25,891 nt of DNA. Source: a virus. Both the position numbers and the translations under genes were made by a program. Positions 53 through 24,932 of the stretch are shown piece by piece; the first letter of the stretch is position 1; every line of letters starts with the position of its first letter. The stretch lies in the UHGV virus genome UHGV-1543656; one strand, given 5' to 3'. Under the pieces are notes generated by a model that was given only the letters and a program-made list of their open reading frames with translations, was not told where the DNA came from and made no database searches.

Positions 53-403
53 TCAGAAAAGAGAAGATTGCTGTGGAATAGCCGGAACTGCTCCGATCTC
101 TGGAAGCGTTTTACGTAAGTCTTCCCACAGGGTATGTACCAGTTCCGGGGCCTGGGCAATATCTGGCGTATGTAAAAAAAGATAAGGCGTAGTGGTCTGA
201 TGCCACTGTGCTAATTTTTGTAACCAGACCTGAAATAACTCCCGGTTTTGCGTCATATCATCACTACCGATAAAACGGATCAGTGGATTTTTCGCCGTCA
301 GTACAGCATGTACCGGAACTTTAGGTTTTTTTCGTTGAGCGTCGCGAATAGCTTCACTGTGTGGACGTGCTGCATGAACCGGGCGGCTGTCTAAAATCAT
401 CAA
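53..403 (-). pseudogene. yecE: 3' (C-terminal) fragment of a host DUF72-family gene, separated from its 5' part by the ~11.2 kb insertion
   Basis: Track ORF 53..403. Same strand as the 11579..11980 fragment. Joining the two across the AAAATCA core gives an in-frame read VNRVI-LDSRPVH. DUF72/yecE assignment is from memory of the VEGNTT-YALP motif and of yecE as a known lambdoid/Stx phage integration site; not searched. Confidence 0.6.
393..399. repeat. attL core (AAAATCA) of the serine-integrase element
   Basis: Junction read gtctAAAATCAtcaagg: host sequence to the left, element sequence to the right. Confidence 0.6.
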
Positions 404-415
404 GGTCTAAATACA

Positions 416-438
416 CTATGAGGTTGATTCCTAGAACA
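416..438. repeat. 23-bp repeat ctatgaggttgattcctagaaca, copy 1 (abuts attL)
   Basis: Its perfect reverse complement is at 767-789 and a degenerate third copy at 1173-1204. Confidence 0.7.
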
Positions 439-754
439 TACCTGTTAATAACAGGACATAAACAGGTTAGTACCTATGCAATTTAACGGTGTATTTATGC
501 GCTATCTATGCAATTCTACACAGATTCTATGCAGTATCAGTATAGTCTCTTTTTACCCTAACTTATTGAAATATATAGAGAATCTGTGAAGTCTCTTTTC
601 AGGGTAAACTGTATCGTGTTAGTCGTCCCTCTCTCGACTCCTAGAAAAGTGCTATATACAGGAGTATATAACGCTATTCATGCAGTTGGTCACCATACGT
701 TACAGTTGCAAGAGATAACAATCAGCTACGTGAAAGTTAGAAAGTGATGGTTAC

Positions 755-789
755 AGTTGATTCGGTTGTTCTAGGAATCAACCTCATAG
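755..789. repeat. Inverted copy of the 23-bp repeat, extended 5' by agttgattcggtt
   Basis: tgttctaggaatcaacctcatag is the exact reverse complement of 416-438. The related copy at 1173-1204 shares both ends (agttgattcggtt ... aacctcatag). Confidence 0.7.
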
Positions 790-1519
790 TTACCTTGTCA
801 AATCTTCGTAGTCCCTTCTTAAAAAATCACTTACAGACACCTTAATATCTATACAGATTTCATGTAGAACACGATTAGTGCGTAAAACAGCTATTATGTT
901 AAAAACGTACTGTATATGTATCAGTACTGATTTATAAGGGTTTTATGTATTTGAAGATAAGAGGCTATACAGCACCTTGAGAGCATGTCTTGTAAGTCAT
1001 TGATACATAAGGTCACAGAAGTTTGTGTCTGTTAAAGAGAAAACTGGGGAGGACTTCACAGGACTATAAAATGTTACAGCTATTGATAGGTTAAATCTTC
1101 TTGATAGATGCTGTGAAATGTGATGAAGGTTTTTTTGAGGTGGAGCTAACAGATGCTATGAAGAAAGTCAATAGTTGATTCGGTTTATCGAATAAACCTC
1201 ATAGATATTTTAAAATTCTGCAAAGGGGGTCACATAGCTGGTGTGACGGGTACTTAGCAGCTACAGACATCTGTCAGATATTTTCGAAGTTTTTTAGAAG
1301 GGGAATTTGAAGAGGGGCTACTACGATTTTATAAAAATTTTCAGAGTCTGAAAAGTTACTGTACAGATTTAATACAGATATCTTTAAAGTATCTGTAAAA
1401 ACTTTTAAGATAAAAGATAGATATCCCAGAAAGGATATCCGTTTAAAAAACCTGTTAAGTATCTCTTAAAAGAGAGTAAACCTTGTCAAGAGTGATTGCA
1501 ATAAAAAATTTTATTTCTT

Positions 1520-2565: not shown

Positions 2566-3527
2566 TGGAAAAATTTCACATGTTTGATGACCGTATTTAT
2601 CAGATGACTAATGGCGTTAAAGCTGCCGACCGTATTATTTACACTGTCATGTTGAATGAACAAAAGTTTTATCACGATAAGGGGCAATATTATACCCCTT
2701 CATATGCTCATCTTGGTCAGTATGCTGGAATCACAAGAACATCCGTGATTGCATGTATGAAACGACTTGAGGCACATGGTTTAATCAAGAAAACTAACGT
2801 TGCAAGCAATCAGTGTGTTATTAAAGTTTATTCACTTGATGAAGTACCGGAAGTTTTAACAGAGCTTACAGCTAAGGAAGCCAGAAAGGCAAAGCTGGAG
2901 TCTAAAGTTACTCAGTCAGTCAAGAAAGATGACCCACTGAGTCAAAATTCTTTACCCACTGAGTTAAAATTTTTTACTCAGTCAGTCAAAATCTTTGACA
3001 CGTATAATAACAGTAATAACAAGAAAGAACTTATTAATAACAATAAAGAAGATGACTTTGAAGAAGAATCTCTTAAGAAGGGAGCTTCGCTCTGTGATTC
3101 ACATGAATGTGATTCTCTTGATATTGAAGAGGCTATTAAAGAGACTGTTAAAACATCTGACTTAGATGACCTTGATAGTGAAGCTACTAAAGAGGCTGTT
3201 AAAAAGGAAGATAAAATCTCTGATGTGAATGAAGTTAGTGACCAGCAAGATACACCTTGCCGCCTCGAATCAACTGATGATGAATTACCGGATGTTGACC
3301 TTGATGATGAAGAAGACCCTGAAGAGGAATTGAAACGTGAACAGCGTAAAGCAGAAATTAAAGAAAGATTCAGAAAGGCTAAGCTAAAGAACAGAATTGA
3401 TGAACTTGATGACTTTGATGATAGTGACGATGATGACTTTTCTTTCACACCAAAAAAGAAAACCCACACTGAACCGAAGAAAGAAAAAGTGAAAGTAAGA
3501 CGTATTTATGCTGGAGGTATGCGCTAA
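2566..3527 (+). CDS. Winged-helix DNA-binding protein (replication-initiator or regulator-like) with long acidic low-complexity C-terminal region
   Basis: Track ORF 2508..3527; start moved to the in-frame ATG at 2566 (MEKFHMF), which has an AAGGA-like RBS. N-terminus ...AGITRTSVIACMKRLEAHGLIKK resembles a wHTH. C-terminal ~180 aa are D/E-rich with K-rich stretches. Confidence 0.45.
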
Positions 3528-4071: not shown

Positions 4072-4100
4072 TTGACAATATGTTAAATATATGTTAAGAT
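4072..4100 (+). promoter_or_regulatory. Sigma70-like promoter with a direct-repeat operator in the spacer
   Basis: TTGACA (4072-4077), 17-nt spacer, TAAGAT (4095-4100). The spacer carries the direct repeat atatgttaa / atatgttaa. Followed by RBS TAAGGAG (4121-4127) and ATG at 4136. Confidence 0.5.
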
Positions 4101-4135
4101 TGTAGTATGAGTAAGAGATTTAAGGAGATTTTACA

Positions 4136-4426
4136 ATGACTCACACAGTTACACGCCTTTTGCCAGAGGCATTTGAACGACTGGCAGCAATCAAAGCTAA
4201 ATATCCCGATATGAAGCACACAGCGCTTGTTGGAGAGCTTTTAAAAGAGTCGGTATCCCTGACCCCTTTCGATAACGTTAAGGGTGTTGCAGAGGGTTCT
4301 AAGGCCATCAGAATCACAACGGGCCAACTGGAACTACTCAAAGCACAGTCCGCAGTAGCAGGTTGCTCAATGATTCAGGTGTTGAGTGCTAAGGTCCATC
4401 AACTGGCGGATAAATTGGAGGTTTAA
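4136..4426 (+). CDS. Small regulator, ribbon-helix-helix-like
   Basis: Strong SD TAAGGAG. N-terminus TRLLPEAFERLAAIKAKYPDMKHTALVGELLKESV fits the beta-strand plus two helices pattern of RHH (CopG/Arc) proteins. Confidence 0.45.
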   Translation: MTHTVTRLLPEAFERLAAIKAKYPDMKHTALVGELLKESVSLTPFDNVKGVAEGSKAIRITTGQLELLKAQSAVAGCSMIQVLSAKVHQLADKLEV

Positions 4427-5314: not shown

Positions 5315-5391
5315 TGACACTCGTTATTCTCTGGACGGTTTTAGGGCTATTTGTTGGTTGCTGGGTAGGTAATACGGTAAATAAGAATTAA
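5314..5391 (+). CDS. 25-aa hydrophobic peptide (MTLVILWTVLGLFVGCWVGNTVNKN), small membrane peptide
   Basis: Below the track length cut-off. ATG overlaps the upstream stop (TAATG) and has a GAGGTGA RBS 4 nt upstream. One predicted transmembrane helix with a polar tail. Confidence 0.45.
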   Translation: MTLVILWTVLGLFVGCWVGNTVNKN

Positions 5392-5415
5392 TGTTACCAA
5401 TCTGTTAAAAAGCTG

Positions 5416-5444
5416 TTGACAAATAACCTTAAGCATGACATAAT
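5416..5444 (+). promoter_or_regulatory. Sigma70-like promoter (TTGACA-17-CATAAT)
   Basis: TTGACA at 5416-5421 and CATAAT at 5439-5444 with a 17-nt spacer. Confidence 0.4.
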
Positions 5445-5450
5445 TTTAAT

Positions 5451-5645
5451 TATAGAGAGAATTGCTCTCTTATTTCTTTCAACAATTCCATCTACATCTA
5501 GGGATAGTTATTCTGAAAGGTGCAATGCTTTTCGCTACATGGCCTCTTATATAACCTGAGAGGTCATCTCGAAAAGTGCTTAATCATTCATTCATTGAAC
5601 CCTTTACAGCTTTGCCCTAATCATGATTAGGGCTTTCTTTAAGAG
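5451..5645 (+). ncRNA. Candidate small non-coding RNA, promoter to terminator with no ORF
   Basis: Starts just downstream of the promoter above. 5' hairpin agagag-aattg-ctctct at 5454-5470. Ends at the terminator 5614-5640. Longest internal ORF is under 10 codons. Confidence 0.25.
5614..5640 (+). terminator. Rho-independent terminator
   Basis: Perfect 20-bp palindrome gccctaatca/tgattagggc followed by TTTCTTT. Confidence 0.65.
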
Positions 5646-5886
5646 TTTTTAAACAGAACTTTTAAAGAAAGTTTTTCCTGAAACTTCGTTAACGTTATAA
5701 AGCAAACCTCCAAAGCCCTTCACAGATAAGGATGATTCCATGAATATCCGAATCACCTATGTTTAGGGCTTTTTCAGCTTTTAAAAAGCATACTTGGCAA
5801 ACCGCCTTTTAAGTCTCTTCTAAGTTTAGATAGGCTGTCAGGTGTGCTTTTTAAAAACTGAATATTACTTAGAAGAGGAAAATGAA

Positions 5887-7010: not shown

Positions 7011-9059
7011 ATGGCACAATTTAAAGTTGATAGTTTTATCGTTGAGCTAGGCTTCAGCGAGAACGTTATTAAGGGCTTGCAAAGAGTTGAAAAGGCAGCT
7101 TTGCAGTCAGCACAAAGAATTGAACGTAATTTGAATAGAGCGTTTAAGGTCGATACCAAGCAACTTGACAGCAATCTGACAAGTTCTTTAGGGCAACTTG
7201 AAAGGAAGTTTAATAAGACCTTTGACAAGATTGAGCAGCGTCTTAAAAACACTAGAGCGTTTAAGATTAAAACGGAAATTGAGGATACTTTAAAGCCACT
7301 TAGACAGCCAAGACAGCCACGAATTAGCGGCAACAGAGCAATCACAGCGGCTTATTCAGCGAATATGTCTAAGCTGAAAGGTCTTAACCCAATTGTCGAG
7401 AAATACATTAAGAGTCAGTTTTACGCATTAAGTAGTAAATCCAAGACACTTGGAAACGAAGCTTTTAATCGTGAGTTAGCAAAGTTAAATCAAAATCTAC
7501 GTGAAACACTTTCTAAGTTTAACAAGACCACCAGCAAAAATAATCACAGTGAAAATGCTTCAAATGGTTTAGATGTACTAGCTTCAAGTGCAATTAAAGC
7601 GGGTACGGCTATTTACACTTTTCAAAGTGCTTTGGCAGCTTATCAGCGAGTAATGGAAATTGGTTTACAGCGTGCAAGTGCTGAACGTTCAATTGATTTC
7701 GTATTTGATAAAGATGCAGGTCAGGTAAAAGAGTTCACAAAGTCATTAGCTCAAACAACGGGTTTAGATATCGCTGAACTGCAATCACAGTTTGCTGGTT
7801 TCGGTGCTTCAGCTAAAGAGTCTATGGGTATTCAAGGTTCTGAAGAACTTTTTAGAAGTATGATTGGCTATTCTCGTCTGATGGGTCGAAGTGAAGAAGA
7901 GATTAAGCGAGCACTGACAGCATTATCACAGATGGCTGGTAAGGGTCAGGTTATGGCTGAAGAGCTTAAGGGGCAACTAGCTGAAGCTGTTCCTGGTATG
8001 GTTCAGGTATTCGCTAAAGCAACCGGAAAGACTGAACAGGAATTATTTGATGCCATGAAGAAGGGGGCTTTAAAATCTGCCGATACTCTTCAGAAGGTCA
8101 CTCAGGAACTGAATAGACAAATCACCGCTAAAGGTGGCTGGAAAGCTATTTCAGAAAGTACACAGGCACAATTAGGGAACCTGAAAAACTCTTGGAATAC
8201 CACGCTTGATAGTATCTTCAGAGGTTCTGAAAGTGGTCTGCAAGATTTTACAAGAAGCTTAACAACGCTTTTAAACGCTCTTGGTGGAAGTGGTAAAAGT
8301 CTTGGTGAATCTCTTGGTAGCTTGATGACTGATATGTCACATGGTGTCGATAGTCTGGCCGATATTAGTTACAAGGTGCGAGCGTTCTTTGATGAGGTGA
8401 CATTAGCTTATCGTGGTTTAACCGATGAACAAAAGAAAGTTGTTGATGCTTTAGGTTCTGGCTTGATTAATAGTTTAAAAGTCTTGGCTGGTGTTATTGC
8501 TGTAAATAAAGTTGTTGGTGTAACCAGAAGTATTTACGGGCTTATGACTGCTATCACAAGATTAGGTCAGGTTGCTGATACTACAGCGGATAACGTGAAT
8601 AGAAAGAATGGGAAACCATCAAGACTGAATCTTGGGAATATGCTATTAGCTGGTAGCGCTCTCTATGCAGGTTATGAAAGACTAGCCTCTACACCTGAAC
8701 GAATGGAAGCACAAGCTAAATTACCAGAGTTAGCTAAAGAATCTGGACTTAAGCCAGTATTTACTATGGACGATGTGAAAGGTTGGTTTAATAGTGCAGC
8801 TATGAATCTTGCTAACTTCCAGCATCCAGAATTAATCACCATGAGACAAGATGCGGCATTAACGAATACGGATATCCAAAGCCTGAGAGATGAAATTAGT
8901 GCTTTGAGCAAACGTATTCAGGAGCCTGTGAAAGTTTCACTTGGTGGTGAAGTTGCCATTAAACCAGATGAAACCAGCTTTATGACCTTTAGCAGTAATA
9001 TCTACGACCAATACGCAGAAGCTACGCTATTAAGTTCATCATTCCCAGAAGATGATTGA
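7011..9059 (+). CDS. Protein with phage tail tape-measure-type domain
   Basis: 682 aa. Central segment SEEEIKRALTALSQMAGKGQVMAEELKGQLAEAVPGMVQVFAKATGKTEQELFDAMKKGALKSADTLQKV matches the tape-measure domain signature as I recall it. N-terminal part is predicted coiled coil. Confidence 0.55.
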   Translation: MAQFKVDSFIVELGFSENVIKGLQRVEKAALQSAQRIERNLNRAFKVDTKQLDSNLTSSLGQLERKFNKTFDKIEQRLKNTRAFKIKTEIEDTLKPLRQPRQPRISGNRAITAAYSANMSKLKGLNPIVEKYIKSQFYALSSKSKTLGNEAFNRELAKLNQNLRETLSKFNKTTSKNNHSENASNGLDVLASSAIKAGTAIYTFQSALAAYQRVMEIGLQRASAERSIDFVFDKDAGQVKEFTKSLAQTTGLDIAELQSQFAGFGASAKESMGIQGSEELFRSMIGYSRLMGRSEEEIKRALTALSQMAGKGQVMAEELKGQLAEAVPGMVQVFAKATGKTEQELFDAMKKGALKSADTLQKVTQELNRQITAKGGWKAISESTQAQLGNLKNSWNTTLDSIFRGSESGLQDFTRSLTTLLNALGGSGKSLGESLGSLMTDMSHGVDSLADISYKVRAFFDEVTLAYRGLTDEQKKVVDALGSGLINSLKVLAGVIAVNKVVGVTRSIYGLMTAITRLGQVADTTADNVNRKNGKPSRLNLGNMLLAGSALYAGYERLASTPERMEAQAKLPELAKESGLKPVFTMDDVKGWFNSAAMNLANFQHPELITMRQDAALTNTDIQSLRDEISALSKRIQEPVKVSLGGEVAIKPDETSFMTFSSNIYDQYAEATLLSSSFPEDD

Positions 9060-9070
9060 TAATAGTCGAA

Positions 9071-9141
9071 TGCTACGTGAAATCTGTAAAGCTAATACCC
9101 ACACTGAAAAATAGAATTTACGTACAACACGCTTAACAGAG
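9071..9141 (+). promoter_or_regulatory. Conserved 71-nt cis-element, copy B, upstream of the 264-aa gene
   Basis: See copy A. The 11-mer GCTACGTGAAA also occurs at 726-736. Confidence 0.55.
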
Positions 9142-9216
9142 AAAACACTTATATATCAAAGGCTTGGTTAAAAATGATTAAAATACACTAAGCCTTTGAA
9201 ATCAAAGGGGAATTTA

Positions 9217-9990
9217 ATGATTTACTCTAACCAAATCAAATATAGTGGCAAAGACGGCATCTATTTCCACTTAAGAGATAATGTAGATGCCTTCTTAACC
9301 TTATCAGCAACTGAAAACATGGAATTTGATAGTCCTATGCAGGTGACTACACAGAACATGCAATCAGGACAAACCGTTACAGATAATGTGCAAAGAGCAC
9401 CCAGAACAATCACTATTAGTGGTGTCGTTGTAGTTGGCTATGAAGGAAGCTTATTATTAACTCGTCAGGGTCAATTAGTAGAAAACTTCATCGACACTCT
9501 TGAAAGCTGGCGTGACCAGAAACAGATTATTTCGGTCATCTGTAAAGACGGAATTAAAATTGACGATTCCATTATTACGAGTTTTAAAGCCTCTAAAGAT
9601 GTGGGGATTTCAAACGGTCTAAGAATCCAGCTAACTTTTCAGGAAATTAACTTCAAAGCTATTGTTGGTCAGACTGATATTTCTGCTGCAACTGGAAAGA
9701 CTGCTACCACGAATGATGGTGGTGCAACTTCTAAGAAGAACACTGGTAACACTACGACAAGTCTAGGTAATGGTATGTTGCTGTGTCAGGAGCTATATAA
9801 TCGCTCTACGAGTGAACTCACTAATGAGCAACTTCAAGCCCGTATCAATTGTGGTAAAAGTGTCAAAGTTGAGAATGGAAAAAGCACCTTCTCAGATGCC
9901 GCTAATGCGCAAGCTTCAAAGGTGCTTAATAATGCTGGTACAGGTAGTACTTTGAAGAAATTTTCTGTGAATCCTAACAAGCGATTCTGA
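9217..9990 (+). CDS. Hypothetical protein, possibly virion or tail-tip associated
   Basis: Track ORF 9196..9990; start moved to the ATG at 9217 (MIYSNQ), which has an AAGGGG RBS. Beta-rich N-terminal half and a Thr/Gly/Asn-rich linker. Functional guess rests only on its position after the tape-measure-domain gene. Confidence 0.4.
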
Positions 9991-11528: not shown

Positions 11529-11578
11529 TGTTCACCTCAAAACTGATGCCCTAGATTGTATCGTTTTAGATGGTGTAT

Positions 11579-11980
11579 TTAAACGTGTCTAATAAAAATC
11601 ACCCGATTAACGCCGCGCTGATGTAAACCGCGATTAAGCGTTTGTTCCTCTTCCCCTTTGGCGAAAAACTGTGGATGGCGGACTTCCACCCCATAATTAA
11701 ATTCACCGGGAAGAGAATCGAGAAAATGCCAAAGCGCAGGCAGCTCCCGTGGGCCGAATGTGGCAGGCAGTTGCAGCCAGTATTGTCCAATGCGCGGAGC
11801 CAACGGTGACATGCGGGTCAAAAATTCAGTCACTAAATCATCGCAATGCCGTAATGCTGCCTGATGCGAAATGGTCGCCGGAAACTTAAAACAGAAGCGG
11901 AAGTCATCTGTGGTCTGCTCACGCCAGCGCAGGACAACCTCGGGTTTCGGCAGGGCATAAAGCGTGGTGTTACCCTCCAC
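11579..11980 (-). pseudogene. yecE: 5'-proximal fragment of the host DUF72-family gene, truncated at its 5' end by the prophage and at its 3' end by the serine-integrase element
   Basis: Track ORF starts at a GTG. The in-frame upstream sequence has no ATG back to a stop at about 12038. NCVEGNTTLYALP matches the conserved N-terminal motif of DUF72 proteins. It continues in frame into 53..403 once the insertion is removed. Confidence 0.6.
11595..11601. repeat. attR core (AAAATCA) of the serine-integrase element
   Basis: Junction read aataAAAATCAcccgatt: element sequence to the left, host sequence to the right. Confidence 0.6.
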
Positions 11981-12006
11981 GCAGTTAACATGACGGGTAT
12001 TAAGGA

Positions 12007-13320
12007 TTAACTTACTGATTTTAATAAGCCTCTGGTGTCACTTTGGTGACTATGGGGCATCATTGGGACATAATCTGTCAGCTTCTGATTCAGCATTGCG
12101 ATCTGTTCTGCATTGCTGTCAGTCATCCATGCTCCGTATACATTGAATACCATCTGGGCACTTGCATGGCCCATCTGGCTGGCAATGAAGCTTGGGTTTG
12201 CTCCGGCAGATAATGACCAGCACGCATAAGTGTGTCGTGACTGGTATGCCTTTCGATGCCTGATCCCTGCACGCTTAATGGCTGTTTCCCATGAGTCACC
12301 TACAGAATCGACTTTGTAGACAAAACCTACCTGTTCGCTTTTTCTAACCACTTGAGGGTTAAACACGAAAGTACATTCATGGTTCACTGAACGTCCATAT
12401 TCACGTAGTTGCACCTTGATGTTGTACTGCTTACCCAGTCTTGTCATTTCAGCCTGATTTTTCAGGACACTGATAGCGGGCTGGATAAGGTGCACAACCC
12501 TGTTTGTGCTTGCTTCAGTTTTCGGTAGAGTGAACTCACCAAGTTTCGTATAATTGCGCCTGATGGTAATTGTTCCTGCCTTCAGATCGATATCTTCCCA
12601 GGCCAGGGAGACCAGTTCACCGTGACGCATTCCTGTGTACACAGCCAATGACCACAGGTTTTTCGTCTGCTGATGTCGGCAAGCATCTATCAGGCGAATA
12701 AATTCGTCACGAGTTAGCGGATCTGGCTCTGCCCTGGCTCTTTTAAGAGGCTTAATTCCCTGGAAGGGATTTGCTTCTAAGTAACCGTGATCTGCAGCAA
12801 ACTGAAACATTCCAGCGATTGTCGTCATGTAATAATTTACAGTAACGACGCTCCGTCCTTTTGCTGCTGCTTTGTTTTTCGTTGAATTCTGATACCCGGT
12901 CAGCAAATCTTTCCTGATATACAGCAATTCCTCTTTGGTTACCGATGACACCAGTTTACTGCCTCCAATTTTCGGAACCATCGTTCTTGCAACGGATTCA
13001 TAGCGATTGAATGCATTTGCAGAGATTTCCATTCGTTTCAGATCCAGCCACTTTTCTTCAAGTTCCTTCACCGTAATTTCTTTTTTACTTACCCCAAAAG
13101 CCTGAAGGTTGGGGGAGTCAGGGAACTGTGCAGCATAATCAAAGCTTCCTGTGCGGATGGCAAAACATACTGATGTCCGCAGTTCCCCGGCGATCTTCCT
13201 GTTCTTGGCAGTGTCAGGGACACCAAGATTTTCCCTGACACGTTTACCTTTAAAATTAAACCAGATGCGTAATGTGCCGCCGTGGTTTTCGACGCCTGTT
13301 GGATATTTGACTTTATCCAT
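12007..13320 (-). CDS. int: Tyrosine-type phage integrase
   Basis: C-terminal catalytic region HRKAYQSRHTYACWSL...GHASAQMVFNVYGAWM carries the R..HxxR..Y signature. Located at the prophage end next to xis. Confidence 0.9.
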   Translation of the reverse strand: MDKVKYPTGVENHGGTLRIWFNFKGKRVRENLGVPDTAKNRKIAGELRTSVCFAIRTGSFDYAAQFPDSPNLQAFGVSKKEITVKELEEKWLDLKRMEISANAFNRYESVARTMVPKIGGSKLVSSVTKEELLYIRKDLLTGYQNSTKNKAAAKGRSVVTVNYYMTTIAGMFQFAADHGYLEANPFQGIKPLKRARAEPDPLTRDEFIRLIDACRHQQTKNLWSLAVYTGMRHGELVSLAWEDIDLKAGTITIRRNYTKLGEFTLPKTEASTNRVVHLIQPAISVLKNQAEMTRLGKQYNIKVQLREYGRSVNHECTFVFNPQVVRKSEQVGFVYKVDSVGDSWETAIKRAGIRHRKAYQSRHTYACWSLSAGANPSFIASQMGHASAQMVFNVYGAWMTDSNAEQIAMLNQKLTDYVPMMPHSHQSDTRGLLKSVS

Positions 13321-13375
13321 CGATACCTCCAGACGCCCAAGAGCGATACGAGCTTACATATTTCATGATATTAAA

Positions 13376-13612
13376 TCACCTGGGTTGTTTGTTTTTCATT
13401 GAGGCGACCCAGGCATCTATTGCTTTTCTGTTATACATACATTCACTGGAAGGCTTTGGATTACCGTCTGGTGATACGTGAATATACTCTCTTCCAACCA
13501 TCCAGCATTCTTTCCGGGCCCGAAGAATTGTGCCTGGTTTGAGCCCGGTAATTGCGATAAGAACGCTTTCACAAACCCATTCATTGGGAGCCAGTTGAAT
13601 CACATTGCCCAT
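13376..13612 (-). CDS. xis: Excisionase-like protein
   Basis: 78 aa, immediately upstream of int. WVCESVLIAITGLKPGTILRARKECWMVGREY resembles the small excisionase family of E. coli lambdoid prophages. Confidence 0.7.
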   Translation of the reverse strand: MGNVIQLAPNEWVCESVLIAITGLKPGTILRARKECWMVGREYIHVSPDGNPKPSSECMYNRKAIDAWVASMKNKQPR

Positions 13613-13620
13613 GTATTACC

Positions 13621-13767
13621 TCACACAACACTCAGCCCACGGCAGTGGCACCACACTTCAAACATTCGTTTCACAATTTCACGACAGTAGAAGCCGTCAA
13701 CATCTCGCGTCAGGTCATAGCGATTGCCGTAACGCTGGCGCACCCATAGCTCAAACGCTTTATTCAT
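13621..13767 (-). CDS. 48-aa Cys-rich small protein (MNKAFELWVRQRYGNRYDLTRDVDGFYCREIVKRMFEVWCHCRGLSVV)
   Basis: Below the track cut-off. AAGGAAG RBS 6 nt upstream. Its stop overlaps the xis RBS (GTGTGAGGTAATACATG). Confidence 0.4.
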   Translation of the reverse strand: MNKAFELWVRQRYGNRYDLTRDVDGFYCREIVKRMFEVWCHCRGLSVV

Positions 13768-13770
13768 TCT

Positions 13771-14010
13771 TTACTTCCTTTTCATGGCCCGTAATTTTTT
13801 CAGATGAGCCTCCTGCTCTGTTTCTGCCAGAATTTGTCGGTATTCCTGGTGATCAATCCGTTCAAACAGTTCATTGAAATCGTTTATTTTTACTGACTGT
13901 GTTCGCCCATCAATTCTTCTGTACAACACAGTGTTGTTTATGCAGCGAATAATTATTACCGGGTAACCGGCACTGTCGGTATACAGTTGTCCCTGATTAA
14001 TCAAAGCGAA
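13771..14010 (-). CDS. Hypothetical protein
   Basis: Track ORF 13771..14136; start moved to the internal ATG (MFALINQ) with an AGGAG RBS, which removes the overlap with the upstream gene. Confidence 0.5.
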   Translation of the reverse strand, partial: FALINQGQLYTDSAGYPVIIIRCINNTVLYRRIDGRTQSVKINDFNELFERIDHQEYRQILAETEQEAHLKKLRAMKRK

Positions 14011-14044
14011 CATTTTTTCTCCTGCTCTCTGAATAGTGAGAACT

Positions 14045-14350
14045 TCAGAGCCGTATGTTTGTAGCGGGTTCAATACTGATAATTTCTGCTGAGATAAGCA
14101 TCCCGGCAAGCCAGAGCTCTCCGGACAGGTCTTCATCCTGGCATGTCAGTTCGCCAATATTAATGGTGGCCATGATATCTGTTTCCCCTGTACGCTCATC
14201 CTCGACTTCTTCATAAGGCAGCGTTGCGTACAGGCTTTCAATAGCGCAACTGATAACATCGAGTCCGGTCAGGTTGCCACCGACAGTGACTTCGAATGTT
14301 TCGCGGTATTCCCATTGCCCGAAAGTTAATCGAACGGTTTGTTTCGCCAT
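14045..14350 (-). CDS. Acidic hypothetical protein
   Basis: Track ORF 14045..14386; start is likely the internal ATG at 14350 (MAKQTV). Confidence 0.45.
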   Translation of the reverse strand: MAKQTVRLTFGQWEYRETFEVTVGGNLTGLDVISCAIESLYATLPYEEVEDERTGETDIMATINIGELTCQDEDLSGELWLAGMLISAEIISIEPATNIRL

Positions 14351-14457
14351 GCGTCCGCATGACGTCAGATTTGGGTCATAGTTCATTATTTGCGGTTGAG
14401 TATTATGAGTGTTTATCTGCTTTTCCCTTAGCCCGACGGCCTGCCGGGCATATTAAG

Positions 14458-15285
14458 TTATTTAACCTGGATAAATGGTGTATTGGCACCGCTGGTCATG
14501 TATTGCGGCAGCGTGCCGTTCCATTTATTGATGGCTTCCAGCTCCATAACACCGGGGTTCTGACGCAGAGCTTCACCGCGTAAACGAATAGCATCGGCTT
14601 CAGCCTGGGCTTTTGTGCGAATCGCATCAGCCTGTCCGGCAGCTTCCGCGCGCAACATGTTGGCTTCCGCTTCGCGCTGTTTTACTTCCTGCTCGCGTTG
14701 CAGAGTTTTCTGGTTCGCCGTGACTTTGGCATTAATGCTGTCGATAACAGTAGGCGGGTACTCCGGCTTACCCACATATGAGAGGCTTATTACCTGAATA
14801 CCGATGGGCGTCATTTCTTCCTGAATGTCTTTAAGAGCTGCATCCAGCAGCTCAGACTTGCCGCCGTCGATAAATTTGTCGGTGGTCATTTTGCTGGCCA
14901 GTCGGTTGAGTGCGTCGGCTATCTTCTGGCGCAGGTCGGTGTCGGTAATGTCGTCCACGCCTTTGCGGTAGGTCTGAAAGACTGTGGTAACTTTGGATGG
15001 ATCAACCTTGTAGGCTACTCCGATGTGGTAACCAATGGTTGTTCCATCGCTCATCTGGAAACTGAATGGATCATCGTAGGTCTTCATCTGCTTAAAGGTC
15101 GGGAAGATATAAACTTCAGTGTTCCAGCCTGTCCAGTAGCGACCAACACCGACCACTTCACCGACGCCTTTGTCGTCGCCAAGTTTGTTGACTTTGATGC
15201 CCACATTACCAGGCTCAACACGATCACAACCGACAAGGCCAATGGCAGGCAGAACAATGGCTAAAGAAAAAATAATTTTTTTCAT
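14458..15285 (-). CDS. SPFH/band-7 (prohibitin-family) lipoprotein
   Basis: Signal peptide with lipobox LVGC. SPFH-like core beginning VEPGNVGIKV, followed by an Ala/Glu/Arg-rich helical tail. AAGGA RBS. Confidence 0.75.
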   Translation of the reverse strand: MKKIIFSLAIVLPAIGLVGCDRVEPGNVGIKVNKLGDDKGVGEVVGVGRYWTGWNTEVYIFPTFKQMKTYDDPFSFQMSDGTTIGYHIGVAYKVDPSKVTTVFQTYRKGVDDITDTDLRQKIADALNRLASKMTTDKFIDGGKSELLDAALKDIQEEMTPIGIQVISLSYVGKPEYPPTVIDSINAKVTANQKTLQREQEVKQREAEANMLRAEAAGQADAIRTKAQAEADAIRLRGEALRQNPGVMELEAINKWNGTLPQYMTSGANTPFIQVK

Positions 15286-15470
15286 CTTTTATCCTTAGTG
15301 AAAGAAAGCCCCTTATAAATGGTATAAATACATGGCGGGGTTAGAAACGTCAGTGCAAAGCCAGAAATCACCGCTACCGTATCCTTCATTGATATCAGAA
15401 ACGGGACGAGCAATCCGTAAATACATGCGATAATTGCCAGTGATATAACTATTCTGAAATAAATGTTCAT
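15282..15470 (-). CDS. Small membrane protein (two predicted TM helices), translationally coupled to the SPFH gene
   Basis: AGGAGG RBS. Its stop overlaps the SPFH start codon (ATGA). Confidence 0.6.
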   Translation of the reverse strand: MNIYFRIVISLAIIACIYGLLVPFLISMKDTVAVISGFALTFLTPPCIYTIYKGLSFTKDKR

Positions 15471-15530
15471 GGTCCTCCTGCTGTATTCAGCTTGCCTTAT
15501 TTAATTGCGTCATGGTTAATTTCGTTTACG

Positions 15531-15923
15531 TCAGAATGGTTTTGTTGCCATCAGTTCGTAATATCCGGCGCTCCATGTGTCATATTTTCTGAACCATTTT
15601 TCTGTATACTGTTTCCTGGCGATGAGTCTGCGCAGTCGTCTGATTGTTCGCTGGTGTGCGCGGGTGTACTCTGTGGTTGATTCTCCACGTTTCCATATTT
15701 CATTCCCGTTGAAGATAAAACGCTTGTCAGGATGGCGTTGTCGGAATCCTGAACGTTCAAAAGCGCGGGTGGTCATAAAGAATGCCAGGTAACGAATTGC
15801 CGTTTTTCGAGTGAGGCATTTTTTTGTTCTTCCGTGATGTGTTACAAAAAATAACGGGCCGACGGGTGTATCATGTTTCTGTAATGCCTGGTCAATGGCG
15901 CTGGCGGTGCGGTTGTCGATCAT
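15531..15923 (-). CDS. Basic hypothetical protein
   Basis: Track ORF; Arg/Lys-rich C-terminal half; sits inside the leftward operon. Confidence 0.45.
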   Translation of the reverse strand: MIDNRTASAIDQALQKHDTPVGPLFFVTHHGRTKKCLTRKTAIRYLAFFMTTRAFERSGFRQRHPDKRFIFNGNEIWKRGESTTEYTRAHQRTIRRLRRLIARKQYTEKWFRKYDTWSAGYYELMATKPF

Positions 15924-16138
15924 TTCTTTATTTCTCCCGAATAACGTTCATGACTCATTATTTCCCAGTTCCGGCCGTCGTCTTTCGATAACAGCCGCCA
16001 GCGACGGTTAACCTTCAGACTGAGATATCCGTTGCGCTGTATCCGATGCGGGAATATACGTCGGCATCTGTACCGCCGCAGGACCAGCAACGCCTGCTGG
16101 TGGACCCACTCAGGAATTCGCGTTGCTGTTAATGTCAC
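15920..16138 (-). CDS. Hypothetical protein (uncertain)
   Basis: Stop overlaps the downstream start (ATGA). Arg-rich, and its 5' end overlaps the upstream gene. Confidence 0.3.
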   Translation of the reverse strand: MTLTATRIPEWVHQQALLVLRRYRCRRIFPHRIQRNGYLSLKVNRRWRLLSKDDGRNWEIMSHERYSGEIKK

Positions 16139-16325
16139 TGGTTTCCTCCTGAGCAGGTGCTGTTATCTGATACCCCGCTCTTTCTGCCAGCCATATGAAT
16201 GTATCCATGCTGGCAATCAGCTCTCCATCGCGGACTTTGCAGACATCTGTTACCTGGCCATTTTCAATTGTCATAACGATCTGCACTTTTTCGTGCACAA
16301 CAGATACAGGGGATAAATTAGCCAT
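16110..16325 (-). CDS. Hypothetical protein
   Basis: GGAGG RBS. Start overlaps the upstream stop (TGATG). Confidence 0.5.
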   Translation of the reverse strand: MANLSPVSVVHEKVQIVMTIENGQVTDVCKVRDGELIASMDTFIWLAERAGYQITAPAQEETSDINSNANS

Positions 16326-16684
16326 CAGTTAATTCCTCCGCTGATATATTTTTCTTTCGCGTAATCAATAACCTCTTGTAAAAGGTTGTCTATAATTAAC
16401 TTTCCGGTTTCAGCCTGGTATTCAGTATGTTGATTAATCCCGATGGCATTCTGGTATGCAGTTCGGAATTCTGTTTCACCCTCCACTCGACCCAATTCAC
16501 CACGGGTAATATCTTCAAAGCGCAACAGCAACTGGTTTATAAACTGTTCTGTTATTTCTATGGTCGTAATGTTCCCATCCAGAAGGTCAACAATAAGCAG
16601 ATCACCACCTGTTTTACGTTTTATTCGATGGAGTGCTGCAACAGCTATACGGCGACGATATGTATTAATGGGTTCATGTGTCAT
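16325..16684 (-). CDS. Hypothetical protein
   Basis: Track ORF within the coupled leftward operon. Confidence 0.5.
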   Translation of the reverse strand: MTHEPINTYRRRIAVAALHRIKRKTGGDLLIVDLLDGNITTIEITEQFINQLLLRFEDITRGELGRVEGETEFRTAYQNAIGINQHTEYQAETGKLIIDNLLQEVIDYAKEKYISGGIN

Positions 16685-16687
16685 TTG

Positions 16688-16801
16688 TTATTTCCCGTAT
16701 GCTTTACGCAGAAATAAGCAGGCAATATGCATGTAATTTTCACCGTATTGTGCAATAAGACAGGCGGTCTTGTGTGATGCCATATTCTTTATAAAAGTCA
16801 T
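16688..16801 (-). CDS. 37-aa small protein (MTFIKNMASHKTACLIAQYGENYMHIACLFLRKAYGK)
   Basis: Below the track cut-off. Strong CAGGAGGA RBS 7 nt upstream. Its stop lies 3 nt before the next start. Confidence 0.35.
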   Translation of the reverse strand: MTFIKNMASHKTACLIAQYGENYMHIACLFLRKAYGK

Positions 16802-16879
16802 AATAAATCCTCCTGTGGATTAAGATTGTAACAATCCCCGGCGATAAAACCGCAATAAACGTTCAGAGCATATTTGTTG

Positions 16880-17245
16880 TTATTGCGCTAATTCTTTTTC
16901 GGCAGCAGTTTTTGCATACTCACATGCAAAATTCAGAATTTCGCTGCCGAGTGTTTTCGTTTCGTGATTACTGGACATATGTAATACCTGTGTTGCATGC
17001 AATAAATGATAAACATTTACCGCAAATGAATCAGGCTCCAGACAAATGCCTTCGTAATTATCTTGCTGTGAGGTTGTTTCTGTCATTGCTTCTGAAGTGC
17101 ATGCGAGCCTGTTTTTGACAATTCTCTTTCCTCTAATCACTATATCGGCAACATCTATTGCCTTTACAACCTCCGGGAGAAGTTCCGGGTTTGTATAATC
17201 AAAGTCATCAACATGGAGAACAGTTATGTTTTCGAACTTTTTCAT
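16880..17245 (-). CDS. Hypothetical protein
   Basis: Track ORF in the leftward operon. Confidence 0.5.
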   Translation of the reverse strand: MKKFENITVLHVDDFDYTNPELLPEVVKAIDVADIVIRGKRIVKNRLACTSEAMTETTSQQDNYEGICLEPDSFAVNVYHLLHATQVLHMSSNHETKTLGSEILNFACEYAKTAAEKELAQ

Positions 17246-17424
17246 GGCTTCCTCAGCTGACTTATATGTCCTGCTATATAGCGAGTCTCAGAAGTGTTTT
17301 CATATTGAGACTGTTTCCGCAATGATTGATAATCAGTTACCGGATGCTTATCCGTGTCCGGCGCACGACCACACGTAGCCGCGTGTTGGTCCCCATTTTC
17401 AATTCAGCTCTCAATGGAGGATAA

Positions 17425-17652
17425 ATGATTAACGCAGAGCAACTCGAAAAAGAGATTTCAGAACTCAAAAAAGAATTAATTTGGCACAAAGTTGCTATCT
17501 CCGCATTAATTCGTCAGGTAGTTTCACCTGAAGATAAAGTAAAGTTTATGAAGCAGTTCTCATCTTCATCAAAGGAGTTTTTCACTGACGAGGTTCATCC
17601 AGAGGCTGGATTTTGGATCCGTCAATTATTTTCGCAAGATAAGCGTAAATAG
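17425..17652 (+). CDS. Hypothetical protein on the opposite strand to the surrounding operon
   Basis: Strong GGAGG RBS 5 nt upstream. Its 3' end overlaps the 3' end of the convergent gene 17582..17823 by about 70 nt. Confidence 0.45.
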   Translation: MINAEQLEKEISELKKELIWHKVAISALIRQVVSPEDKVKFMKQFSSSSKEFFTDEVHPEAGFWIRQLFSQDKRK

Positions 17653-17823
17653 CGTCATCAATACTCGCGTCGCTCTTGAATTTAAGAGCGATGCTCTTTA
17701 TATCCTCTGAAATTATTACCAGATCACCATATGTTATATTTTTATTATTGCGCGCAGTGCTTTTTTGTATGAAATCAAGCAATTCACCAATGAGACAAAT
17801 ATGGTAAGCATCACAGTTTTTCA
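17582..17823 (-). CDS. Hypothetical protein
   Basis: Track ORF 17582..17866; start moved to the internal ATG (MKNCDAY), which overlaps the upstream stop (ATGA). Confidence 0.4.
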
Positions 17824-18237
17824 TGCGCAGATATCCTTTGCTGCCGTTTCGCCAGTTAACAGCCACATCGGATCGCAGCCAAGAATATTTGCCAGTGGGA
17901 TAAGCATACTGATAGTTGGTTCATACTCTCCGCTCTCCCACTGGATGATAATTTCTTCATCGAGATCGAGCAGCCTGGCGAGTTCGGCGGTTGTTAAGCC
18001 GCAGGCTTCGCGTTGGGTGCGAAGACGGTTGTTGATTGCAGAATTTTTGTTCTGTAAAAGCATTGCTGACGATAGCTTTCTGGATATGCTATTTGTCATA
18101 TCCCATGCCAGTCCTGCGCATGACTCTATATCGCTAGAGAGCGTAGCATCAGGTGTTGCTTTTGCTATTAGTGTAATGAGGCTGCCGAGGTTTTTCAGTT
18201 CTTCGAGACAGTCAAGAGTTGTAGCTTTATTGATCAT
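17821..18237 (-). CDS. HTH (XRE-type) DNA-binding protein, first gene of the leftward early operon
   Basis: C-terminal half ...EACGLTTAELARLLDLDEEIIIQWESGEYEPTISMLIPLANILG is a classic XRE helix-turn-helix. It occupies the position that gene N holds in lambda. Confidence 0.6.
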   Translation of the reverse strand: MINKATTLDCLEELKNLGSLITLIAKATPDATLSSDIESCAGLAWDMTNSISRKLSSAMLLQNKNSAINNRLRTQREACGLTTAELARLLDLDEEIIIQWESGEYEPTISMLIPLANILGCDPMWLLTGETAAKDICA

Positions 18238-18241
18238 GAGA

Positions 18242-18320
18242 TGATACCTCAGTTACGAACTTTGTTTTATGGTAACTAAGGTATCAAGGTGTGGCAAGTG
18301 ATTTTTGATACTTTGGTTTC
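18242..18320. promoter_or_regulatory. Left operator/promoter region (OL/PL-like)
   Basis: Three sites of the GATAC-N3/4-GT(A/T)AC / TTGATACTTTGG family at about 18242-18256, 18272-18286 and 18305-18316, matching the sites to the right of cI. Confidence 0.5.
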
Positions 18321-18340
18321 TTTTTGTGTTTTGTGTCTGG

Positions 18341-18997
18341 TTAGAAAATATCCCACCTGGCATCAACCACAACACCTACTATTTCGCAATCATTGTCCAT
18401 TTCTATGATTGGATATTGTGGATTAAGGGGCTTTAGAAACGCCTTTCCCATTTCAGAAATATATTTTTTGAATGTTGCTTCATTGGTAGATTTTTTTCTG
18501 GCGATGACGTAACACCCTGAAAAAACTTCTTTATCTGGGTTGACAAGGATCGACATTCCTTCAGGAAATGTTATTCCTACGGGCGAAGTCATTGAGTCTC
18601 CGTGCACTTCCAGCCAGAACCCCCTCTCACCAGCGTATTTTACAGAATGCCTCCAATTATCCTGATCATACATGTTGTAGTCATCACCAGAAGTTGCGAA
18701 TAATCCTGCCTGAACCCAGTTAATTACAGGGTAAGAGTATGCTGTGTCTCTCTGTGGGCAGCTCTTAACATTATTTTCCCAATGCTTATCTTTTTCATCT
18801 CCGTTCTGAAGCCACTGCGGTGAACACTGCAGTGCAGCTGCAACTTTAAAAAGGGTGTCACCGTTGAAACTTTTTGTAAGGCCTTGCTCGGCTTTACTGA
18901 TTGCAACTCTGGTGACCCCAGCTTTTTTAGCCAACGCATCTTGTGTTAACCCAGCTTTTTGCCGTGCGTTGATGAGACGTTCACCTAAAGACTTCAT
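18341..18997 (-). CDS. cI: CI-like phage repressor (HTH plus S24 LexA-type autopeptidase domain)
   Basis: N-terminal HTH (LTQDALAKKAGVTRVAISKAEQG). C-terminal S24 fold with GDSM and a conserved Lys (VIARKKS). Start placed at the ATG at 18997 (MKSLGER) with a GAGAGGAGAAG RBS; the track start at 19072 would lie inside the operator region. Confidence 0.85.
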   Translation of the reverse strand: MKSLGERLINARQKAGLTQDALAKKAGVTRVAISKAEQGLTKSFNGDTLFKVAAALQCSPQWLQNGDEKDKHWENNVKSCPQRDTAYSYPVINWVQAGLFATSGDDYNMYDQDNWRHSVKYAGERGFWLEVHGDSMTSPVGITFPEGMSILVNPDKEVFSGCYVIARKKSTNEATFKKYISEMGKAFLKPLNPQYPIIEMDNDCEIVGVVVDARWDIF

Positions 18998-19017
18998 TTT
19001 TCTTCTCCTCTCATGGC

Positions 19018-19095
19018 TGTTGATACTAAAGTAACAGAATTTCTTGATACTTTGGGTTCCTGTGGTTAACATCGTTGGATAACAAAGTATCTGGT
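19018..19095. promoter_or_regulatory. Right operator/promoter region (OR/PR-like)
   Basis: Operator sites tGATACtaaaGTAAC (19021-19035), TTGATACTTTGG (19044-19055) and GATAACaaaGTATC (19078-19092). Rightward promoter TTGATA (19044-19049), 17-nt spacer, TAACAT (19067-19072). Confidence 0.55.
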
Positions 19096-19108
19096 GTGAG
19101 ACTAAAGA

Positions 19109-19336
19109 ATGACCCTTTATGAAATATTAAAAATTCAATTTAAAACCAATGCCGCTATTGGTCGCAGGTTCCCAAAGAAAGGAAGGCCTCGTGGCAGTCA
19201 AGGTGTTGGAAAGTGGAAAACGCGAGGTGTTCCGGAGGATGTTGCCATTCTTTGTCATCTGGATACGAGCATTCCATATACACACCCAAGTCTAGCGAAT
19301 ACAGAAGATGACAAGCCCACAGGAGACCAACAATGA
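19109..19336 (+). CDS. Hypothetical basic protein at the cro position
   Basis: First rightward ORF after the predicted PR. No recognisable HTH and a weak RBS, so the call is tentative. Confidence 0.35.
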   Translation: MTLYEILKIQFKTNAAIGRRFPKKGRPRGSQGVGKWKTRGVPEDVAILCHLDTSIPYTHPSLANTEDDKPTGDQQ

Positions 19337-20040
19337 ACACCGCAATTTTTAACGGCAAAGCATCCATGACCAGCGTTGAAATTGCAGAGCTGGTGGGTAA
19401 ACGTCATGACAATGTGAAACGCACTATTGAAACATTAGCCAAAGGTGGCGTTGTCCGGTCTCCTCAAATTGAGGTTTCCGAAAGAATCAATAACTTAGGT
19501 TTTAAAGTTCAATATGAGCATTACCTGTTTGAAGGAGAACAAGGTAAGCGCGACAGCATCATTGTCGTCGCACAGCTCTGTCCTGAATTCACTGCTCGCC
19601 TGGTAGATCGCTGGCGCGAACTGGAAGAACAGATCCGTAAGCCAATGAGCGAAATCGAAATGGTTGCCGCGATGGCTCTTGAAGCAGTTCGTCAGCAGAA
19701 ACGGATCACTCAGGTGGAAGAAAAAGTCAGCCACGTTGCTGAAACAGTCGAGCAAATTAAAAAGGGCACTATTCGTGAGGGCTATGCCGGATATCGCCAA
19801 CTGAAAGCAAAAACCGGTTTGTCAGATGATAAATGCCGCAATCTGGTGAACGCCTATCAGATTCCTACAGACACCCATGAGTTCATGACGCCGGACGGAT
19901 TGTTGTCACGTCGCGCAATTGTTGCTGTGGAACCGTTTATGGCTGCTTTTTATCGGGTTATGGAGGAAGCAGAACCGCGAGGGACTCGCTGGTATCACCC
20001 GAAAATGGGGTTATTTCAGGTTATTGGTTGGCAGCGGTGA
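19333..20040 (+). CDS. Rha-family phage regulatory protein
   Basis: N-terminus MTSVEIAELVGKRHDNVKRTIETL matches the Rha domain signature. Confidence 0.7.
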   Translation: MNTAIFNGKASMTSVEIAELVGKRHDNVKRTIETLAKGGVVRSPQIEVSERINNLGFKVQYEHYLFEGEQGKRDSIIVVAQLCPEFTARLVDRWRELEEQIRKPMSEIEMVAAMALEAVRQQKRITQVEEKVSHVAETVEQIKKGTIREGYAGYRQLKAKTGLSDDKCRNLVNAYQIPTDTHEFMTPDGLLSRRAIVAVEPFMAAFYRVMEEAEPRGTRWYHPKMGLFQVIGWQR

Positions 20041-20066
20041 AAAAAAGCCGGGAGTAACCCGGCTCA
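20040..20066 (-). terminator. Rho-independent terminator acting on leftward transcription
   Basis: Hairpin GCCGGG-agtaa-CCCGGC (20047-20063). On the minus strand it is followed by a run of seven U; on the plus strand there is no U-tract. Confidence 0.55.
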
Positions 20067-20314
20067 CTCAACATCAATAACGGGGAGCTGTTTCGCATAA
20101 AACGGCTCCGAAACATCCAAGAACAGTTCTAAAGATATCAGCAGCTATATGATCATTTCAAGACCAAATATTGATTCTGCAATTTCGGGACGTTACACTG
20201 TCTCCGCACCTTATAAAGCGGGTGCCGGGATTGGCGTCCTGAAATTGATTACTGAGCATAACCGCGCTCATGCGGTTTTTTCGTGTCATGAGCATTGCTA
20301 CGCCCAAATTATGG

Positions 20315-20430: not shown

Positions 20431-20451
20431 CTGACTACCGGGGCTGTCACT

Positions 20452-22350: not shown

Positions 22351-22351
22351 G

Positions 22352-24911: not shown

Positions 24912-24932
24912 TGACTGAGTTTTTTTCTCTGT

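Follow-up and report, generated by a model that had tools for sequence, protein, structure and literature searches.

The window analysed in this study, that is, the whole stretch of 25,891 nucleotides (nt) recorded as virus genome UHGV-1543656, is a part of an Escherichia coli chromosome and shares 99.9% identity with strain JNEC-KY173. It contains an 11.2-kb element, which is integrated in the host gene yecE (DUF72) via a large serine recombinase. The host gene is split twice: by the element and, further right, by a lambdoid prophage. The arms of the reconstructed attP are inverted (GTGTATTTA, 11573–11581, versus TAAATACAC, 408–416). The subject of this work is the non-coding region 404–1519, which begins within the P' arm of attL, sits just inside this attachment site and extends to the first gene of the element (Table 1).

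As is expected of a satellite, the element has its own integration and replication functions, including the domains of the recombinase, an O-like Rep, and attL and attR sites that could both be defined. Its genes are insufficient for a complete virion. The only structural homologues are a tape-measure protein (TMP) and a Dit-like tail protein, and no match to capsid, portal or terminase proteins was found among the open reading frames (ORFs) of the element in Pfam or PHROGs. The remaining ORFs encode several small proteins without assignment.

Table 1. Features of the element in yecE and of the non-coding region 404–1519 (window coordinates unless a relative is named).
Feature	Position	Strand	Basis or remark
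attL crossover core AAAATCA	393–399	.	alignment with intact yecE of K-12; yecE 341–347 present at both junctions
P' arm of attP, ends in TAAATACAC (408–416)	400–416	+	sequence reading after core definition
Palindromic unit, copy 1, truncated, inverted orientation	416–438	-	full 33-bp form at the same site in relatives L006 and L010
Conserved non-coding module, 0.94 kb, family-wide	438–1378	+	same BLAST boundaries in 36 relatives, differing flanks
Palindrome CCTGTTAATAACAGG, module start	441–455	.	homology of all relatives begins there
CTATGCA(A/G)T, three copies at 474, 506 and 527, spaced 32 and 21 bp	474–535	+	0.02 expected; 0 of 1000 shuffles
Palindromic unit, copy 2, 33 bp, TTGATTCGG...GAATCAACCTCATAG, after TTACAG	757–789	+	site filled or empty, depending on the relative
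Most conserved core of the module	800–1170	+	column identity 83–100%, 35 unique relatives
Palindromic unit, copy 3, 30 bp, after CAATAG	1175–1204	+	absent from about 91% of relatives
Segment homologous to the left terminal region of Felixounavirus (Pr103Blw 530–710)	1203–1378	+	Smith–Waterman, nhmmer
Homologue of the Felixounavirus divergent promoter (Pr103Blw 9083–9006; FelixO1 21,578–21,633)	1381–1459	+	includes palindrome GATATCC-N6-GGATATC, 1420–1439
ACCTTGTCAAG box; the phage promoter region has the same box at the collinear position	1480–1490	+	30 nt before the dam start codon
Dam-type methyltransferase with C-terminal helix-turn-helix	1520–2182		
rep, O-like/DnaD-like replication initiator	2508–3527		matches O-like and DnaD-like initiator families
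Predicted replication origin in rep: four 22-bp iterons (2908–2997), then AT-rich stretch	2908–3060	+	
Iteron arrays of relatives inside rep	L002 15926–15992; L027 1284–1338		
Palindromic unit, copy 4, degenerate, in intergenic 5315–5841	5726–5761	-	
Tape-measure protein (TMP)	7011–9059		
Dit-like tail protein	9196–9990		
Large serine recombinase, 507 aa	10005–11528	-	Resolvase, Recombinase and Zn-ribbon domains
attR: P arm of attP (GTGTATTTA, 11573–11581) and core AAAATCA (11595–11601)	11573–11601	.	yecE alignment

The region is AT-rich (34% G–C) and, as was noticed in a first-pass annotation of the window, there is no ORF of at least 60 amino acids within 403–1520. The repeats reported in that annotation were all recovered, some in slightly corrected form. 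The perfect inverted repeat pair, said to be 23 bp long, turned out to be slightly longer (24 nt, 415–438 and 767–790, 100% complementary), whereas perfect inverted repeats in 200 dinucleotide shuffles were 18 nt long at most. Its left copy was described as abutting attL, and it does begin at the last base of the P' arm. The third, degenerate copy of the repeat was found at 1175–1204, the recurring ACAGAT motif occurs eight times over both strands (0.9 expected; 0 of 1000 shuffles), and palindromes near 1370–1430 were confirmed at 1374–1396 (ACAGATA/TATCTGT) and at 1420–1439. The reported cluster of four ATGCA(A/G)T repeats within about 60 bp holds for three exact copies (476, 508 and 529); the motif at 497 is the degenerate ATGCGCT, and the fourth exact copy lies apart, at 680. 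The four copies in the region compare with 0.24 expected (0 of 1000 shuffles). The longer CTATGCA(A/G)T repeats are partly conserved among relatives and represent candidate protein-binding sites. Overall, the first-pass interpretation is partly supported. It missed that the region contains a family-wide conserved module, that parts of the region are copied from a virulent phage, and that the repeats are a mobile palindromic unit.

A distant-mode BLAST search of 404–1519 against 5,426 complete E. coli genomes revealed matches in 550 of them, all chromosomal, with at least 80% of the query covered in 258. A further 30 metagenome contigs were recovered with a 20-mer from the region. The plasmid collection contained no match to the region, and the conserved 20-mer gave no match among the GTDB species representatives and is present in one contig of IMG/VR. 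In total, 36 relatives were compared in alignments made in 3-kb pieces, and conservation per column was calculated from the 35 unique ones. Homology among the relatives always starts at CCTGTTAATAACAGG and ends at about 1376–1378. To the left of the module, yecE, other attachment sites or an additional cargo gene are found, and to the right either the phage-like promoter and dam or some 700 bp of different sequence; in relative L027, an excised form, the starting palindrome comes after a different attP. The boundaries of the module are independent of attachment site, cargo, downstream genes or Rep type. Over 880–1170, column identity reaches 91–100% (mostly at least 95%), and stretches of tens of bases are invariant in relatives whose flanking genes share only 70–90% identity.

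In relatives of the S115 type, a small serine recombinase cassette substitutes for window positions 748–1176. The cassette, which is present in many relatives (L002 13346–14205), encodes a 191-aa protein with Resolvase and helix-turn-helix domains and replaces this interval exactly. It appears that the cassette and the conserved core look like alternatives at one locus. The idea that the core itself is a decayed small-recombinase gene was rejected, as six-frame tblastn detected no trace of such a gene. Between the attP arm and the module start (around 416–440 in the window), an unannotated cargo gene for a protein of 222–277 aa was found in other relatives (L004 851–1516, L005 663–1496), and this site looks like a cargo hotspot, possibly with defence genes. 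A divergent family member, NIPH17_0036, has the module and the TMP, Dit-like and recombinase genes in common with the element, but not dam/rep. It also has genes for an HNH endonuclease and an AP2-domain protein (L045, 11503–11790 and 14415–14939) and about 1.6 kb of additional unannotated DNA beside the module; its TMP and recombinase genes contain insertions of IS2 and IS21.

One relative is circular or concatemeric. In metagenome contig CYGL01000620.1 (L027, 1–12790), the first ~1.5 kb recurs at the end, with a period of 11,255 bp. An intact attP of another type lies between the recombinase gene and the module, which adjoin each other in this contig.

Bioinformatics analysis revealed that the distal part of the module, 1203–1378, is related to the left terminal region of Felixounavirus genomes. 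The Smith–Waterman score to phage Pr103Blw was 83 versus 27.5 ± 3.5 in shuffles (z about 16), and a search with the module profile (nhmmer) matched Pr103Blw 482–720 (E-value, 6.9 × 10−10) and Mooglevirus Silverhawkium (E-value, 5 × 10−12). In the remainder of the module (438–1200), phage homology was not detectable. Pr103Blw has been published with direct terminal repeats of 581 bp, derived by PhageTerm (PMC8303462), and the annotation of its record gives the same length. Since the repeat ends at 581 and the match covers 530–710, the homology straddles the inner boundary of the terminal repeat. The equivalent of phage position 581 is found at about 1254 in the window, within GGGTACT/TAGCAG (slash at the boundary). 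The independently deposited genome of EcSzw_1, which represents a third genus, ends at the exact base aligned to Pr103Blw 581, and the boundary is thus supported as a real physical end. When phages and satellites were aligned jointly, the blocks without variation were GATATTTTAA..TT.TGCAAAG, GG.TAC..A.CAG, AGATATTTT and TTTTATAAAAATTTT, and the boundary falls in the second of them. Relatives of the b-type additionally carry a homologue of the repeat-internal phage positions 265–318. Based on these alignments, 1203–1378 is a candidate packaging or terminus signal.

Two other alignments to the same phage region were discarded. A link between 445–478 and phage positions 703–747, which would imply circular permutation, was dropped because 49 of 500 shuffles reached its score. 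Gap-permissive alignments of 430–1200 to the phage terminal region gave z of 3–4 over mononucleotide shuffles and were visually meaningless; these values probably reflect composition. In Pr103Blw itself, the concatemer junction (L041 1–1212, L042 42384–43421) comprises about 1.7 kb of gene-free DNA with about 25 copies of YTGTTAR, all on the same strand. The junction is 70–95% conserved between genera, exceeding the adjacent genes, and no function for it seems to have been described.

The segment next to the module, 1381–1459, matches 249 phage records, almost all of them FelixO1-like, at 81–88% identity, and its local alignment score was 86.5 versus 24.9 ± 3.4 in shuffles. In Pr103Blw, the homologous sequence occupies the intergenic space from which the gp16 operon runs leftward and the DUF5681 gene rightward. 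The full double box of the phage, CTTGTCAAG-N4-TTGTCAAC, is restricted to the sequences upstream of the DNA polymerase gene and the gp16 operon. In FelixO1, ORF86 (L003 1101–2516) adjoins both the tRNA array and the shared promoter region; its product contains DUF2828/DUF7788 and is listed in PHROGs as 'RNA-binding protein'. Homology to these phages extends to the tail genes: 544 bp of the Dit-like gene share 94.7% identity with many Felixounavirus genomes, and the best full-length matches of the TMP are TMPs of Ounavirinae (about 28% amino acid identity). The occurrence of the two tail genes (7011–9990) in an element without capsid genes suggests tail remodelling or interference with tail assembly.

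The inverted repeats of the region belong to a palindromic unit of 30–34 bp, which occupies six or more sites among the relatives in both orientations. Every copy is located after ...TAG or ...CAG and has ...ATAG or ...ATGA at its end; the central loop is variable, and some copies contain a nested second hairpin. Copy 2 is absent from about 71% of the aligned relatives, and its empty site reads ...GTTATAG/TTACCTTG, compared with ...GTTACAG/TTGATTCGGTTGTTCTAGGAATCAACCTCATAG/TTACCTTG when filled (slashes mark the insertion points). The empty site of copy 3 is AAAGTCAATAG/ATATTTT, and the filled one holds the 30-bp insert. The unit was found in 120 of the 5,426 genomes, at 1–3 places each and all within the element family. 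Because of these low numbers it is not a chromosome-wide repeat, and the many dispersed chromosomal copies typical of repetitive extragenic palindromic sequences (REPs) or miniature inverted-repeat transposable elements were not observed. The unit is also present in the terminal non-coding DNA of the Ounavirinae phages Sf18, EcSzw_1 and Silverhawkium. No transposase associated with it was identified. Judging by this distribution, the unit acts as a small mobile palindrome would, with a range limited to the elements and the terminal regions of the phages that are their putative helpers. The mini-insertions are variable passengers and not the functional core. Binding sites for a recombination directionality factor (RDF), one of the roles proposed in the first-pass annotation, find no support: the repeats cited for that role are these same mini-insertions, absent from most family members.

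The terminal region of Silverhawkium contains repeated copies of another small palindrome, (G)GGATTGGTA-N-TACCAAT (L043 1930–2000 and 2445–2470), which is also nested in some satellite copies of the first unit (near attP in L007, L013 and L038). A perfect terminator-like palindrome, GCCCTAATCATGATTAGGGC (5615–5634), is located beside degenerate copy 4.

Judged by sequence comparison, four independent links thus tie the element to Ounavirinae: the tail genes, the promoter region, the terminal boundary and the palindromic unit. We consider that 404–1519 may be a cis-acting helper interface and control region of a satellite-like element tied to FelixO1-like virulent phages, and put the probability of this reading at about 50%. 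According to this reading, the region would consist of three layers. The last ~180–240 bp of the module copy the sequence around the inner terminal-repeat boundary of the helper. The terminase of the helper would recognise or cut the replicated element at this copy, and the element would be packaged or would engage the packaging machinery; the copy could serve as a packaging signal, a terminus signal or a terminase decoy. The second layer is a 110-bp copy of a phage divergent promoter/operator (1381–1490), directly upstream of the dam-rep-...-TMP-Dit operon, through which the transcription programme of the helper may switch the element genes on during infection. In the third layer, the palindromic mini-insertions give rise to the inverted repeats, and these passengers are shared with the phage terminal regions. 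A bolder version makes the region a hub for packaging and induction, with a stolen promoter, a boundary copy at ~1254 and exchange of the palindromic unit, itself not described before. The family, carried by about 10% of complete E. coli genomes, would then be the first satellites known to parasitise virulent coliphages with direct-terminal-repeat packaging. This version is tentative, and we lean towards doubting it.

Several points weigh against the helper-interface reading. Homology to the right boundary backs the packaging site that was among the first-pass proposals, but a search of the whole element gave no counterpart of the left boundary, which is phage position 1; one boundary by itself does not account for how a terminal-repeat terminase would produce both ends. 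The homologous phage sequence (482–720) could also be an origin, a promoter or another site rather than a packaging signal. The promoter-like double TTGTCAA box is half conserved, the window keeping the first half only, and a generic scan of the region for sigma-70 promoters and terminators gave nothing above chance. The most conserved core, 800–1170, has no detectable phage homology or assigned role. Moreover, since this core is swapped for the recombinase cassette in many relatives, the module is not one indispensable unit. The Rep query recovered no relative from IMG/VR. Finally, the sequences show the anatomy, the conservation, the homologies, the lack of inversion and a circular or concatemeric relative, whereas helper dependence, packaging and promoter activation are what we infer.

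Alternatively, the module might be transcribed in either direction, as a P4-like immunity or antisense RNA or as a long 5' leader of dam-rep. Very high sequence conservation without coding capacity speaks for such an RNA, as does the positive GC skew over 800–1400, which resembles that of the sense strand of the element genes; moreover, the promoter region, being divergent in the phage, might likewise drive transcription to the left, through the module. As to coding, six ORFs of at least 25 aa are present in the region, one of which is preserved in relatives (31 aa, GTG start, 921–1016, minus strand). This ORF has no Shine–Dalgarno sequence and sits in a 96–100% conserved stretch, and its preservation says nothing on coding because the surrounding sequence is nearly invariant. 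Rfam gave no match over 300–2600 at the gathering threshold, nor at E-values up to 5, and in sliding RNAalifold windows the energies of the conserved core equalled those of column shuffles (z about 0). The only low z-scores were obtained at 580–779 on the minus strand, with energies of just −6 to −9 kcal/mol. Together with the promoter and terminator scan mentioned above and the dispensability of the core in the cassette-bearing relatives, these results make a regulatory RNA or leader rather unlikely. The long non-coding RNA suggested in the first-pass annotation is likewise not favoured, although the region may be transcribed.

In another explanation, the element is a defence island, the copies of the phage terminus, promoter, TMP and Dit serving as a decoy that titrates or misdirects terminase, transcription factors and tail assembly. 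This explanation rests on the same phage homologies as the helper interface, and a single copied boundary suits a decoy better than a full packaging substrate. Satellites such as PLE (see below) both hinder the phage and get transduced (PMC7145576), and the decoy and helper-interface readings are not mutually exclusive. However, a static decoy would have no need of the full excision and replication kit of the element (recombinase, Rep and origin), or of the circular or concatemeric form found in a relative. As an explanation of its own, a decoy seems unlikely to us.

The replication origin proposed in the first-pass annotation would make the repeats in 404–1519 iterons for the Rep of the element, as in PLE, whose origin sits in a 2.7-kb repeat-bearing non-coding region (PMC7145576). 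The low G–C content, the spaced CTATGCA(A/G)T repeats and the enrichment of ACAGAT would suit such a role. An origin specific to its initiator should, however, co-vary with that initiator, and it is the arrays inside rep that do so. The iteron sequence of the window is shared only by its closest relative; at the same place, the rep gene of S115 has a different array (23 bp × 2.9) and that of L027 has 23-bp repeats. The module, in contrast, is 80–100% conserved across relatives with divergent Rep proteins. The ori of phage lambda, consisting of iterons and an AT-rich region, sits inside gene O. The predicted origin here is alike: its four direct 22-bp iterons and the AT-rich stretch after them are internal to an O-like initiator gene. 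It differs in that it lies outside 404–1519. Because a lambda-like arrangement is already found inside rep, the non-coding region need not be an origin. Replication most likely starts at the iterons inside rep, judging from their position and variation, and an origin in 404–1519 is very unlikely.

It is still less probable that the region has no function and consists merely of decayed gene remnants and scars left by recombination at a hotspot for cargo. Cargo genes or the recombinase cassette do occur in or beside it in relatives, and mini-insertions accumulate there, but the invariant stretches described above, the homology retained specifically to functional phage non-coding DNA, and the lack of any trace of a recombinase gene in six-frame translation are not what decay would leave. 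The weakest explanation, a site-specific recombination substrate (a 328-bp invertible switch between the 24-bp repeats, or res-like or RDF sites), draws on the perfection of the repeats, on the 8–9-bp inverted half-sites and 10–12-bp spacer of the unit (a size range like that of resolvase sites) and on the small serine recombinase of some relatives, and is barely credible given that copies 2 and 3 are missing from most relatives, that the unit is present in only 120 of the 550 carrier genomes and also in virulent phages, and that S115, which bears the recombinase, lacks the unit next to this gene. An inversion was rejected, as all of the 186 genomes covering the yecE flank and the region and all of the 36 relatives are collinear; systems such as Hin/Gin and fimS have conserved repeats and an adjacent invertase, whereas the window is devoid of a small recombinase. 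The invertible switch is thus largely refuted at the population level.

Elsewhere in the element, a near-consensus sigma-70 promoter (TTGACA-17-TAAGAT, 4073–4101) lies just upstream of the ORF at 4136–4426, which suggests that a part of the element may be expressed without a phage. The neighbouring lambdoid prophage (11597–25891) contains a tyrosine integrase gene (12007–13320) and matches to C4 antisense RNA and isrK (20206–20394).

The elements apparently form an undescribed satellite-like family. No paper on a Felixounavirus satellite or on this element family was found in the literature, the coverage of which was incomplete, so that the novelty is provisional; nor was a satellite of a helper packaging by direct terminal repeats found within the same incomplete coverage. 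FelixO1-like phages are widely used for typing, biocontrol and therapy of Salmonella and E. coli, and an element with this module is present in roughly every tenth complete E. coli genome. Hijacking or sabotage of these phages by the element, if it occurs, would have consequences for phage efficacy as well as for gene transfer. The one-sided boundary copy offers a target of ~50 bp around 1254, which could reveal how terminases of this type select the place to cut, and the region is separable into a terminus mimic, a promoter mimic, variable palindromic units and an ultra-conserved core.

Some features of the region have parallels in known systems. REPs have a GTAG foot, and IS200/IS605 elements insert 3' to a tetranucleotide. 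The units described here are also imperfect palindromes, apparently inserted immediately 3' of a short ...TAG motif and ending in ...ATAG, but, unlike REPs, bacterial interspersed mosaic elements or IS200/IS605 elements, they are confined to the element family and a few Ounavirinae instead of being dispersed over the chromosome.

Among satellites, we know of no description of helper-like TMP and Dit genes, or of a copy of a helper terminal-repeat boundary, in the phage-inducible chromosomal island-like element (PLE) of Vibrio. PLE is otherwise alike in that it, too, is integrative, of comparable size and equipped with a large serine recombinase and a replication initiator of its own, in its link to a virulent myovirus, and in its long repeat-bearing non-coding region; it differs in that the origin of its RepA_N initiator is in the non-coding region, whereas here the origin is apparently inside an O-like rep (PMC7145576). 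Sequence homology between the element and PLE was not found, no search having been aimed at it. PICMIs, minimalist chromosomal islands that are phage-inducible, are satellites of virulent vibriophages, packaged as 8-copy concatemers in full-size capsids (PMC10803314). They share with the element a tie to a virulent helper, putative here, and a size of ~1/8 of the helper genome (here 11.2 versus 88.4 kb, the latter for Felixounavirus) (PMC10803314), a ratio that may be a coincidence. The packaging of concatemers has its likeness here in the concatemer-like or circular contig of relative L027. Unlike the element, PICMI has a tyrosine integrase beside fis, is without structural genes, and shows random concatemer ends, which indicate headful packaging (PMC10803314).

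Closer to the proposed role of the boundary copy are P4 and the phage-inducible chromosomal islands (PICIs), including the Staphylococcus aureus pathogenicity islands (SaPIs). The cos site of P4 matches that of P2, and PICIs and SaPIs carry cos or pac sites. As in these satellites, a short copy of a helper terminase recognition sequence, here a candidate, is located in a non-coding stretch; their helpers, however, are of the cos or headful-pac type, whereas the putative helper of the element has direct terminal repeats, one boundary of which is copied.

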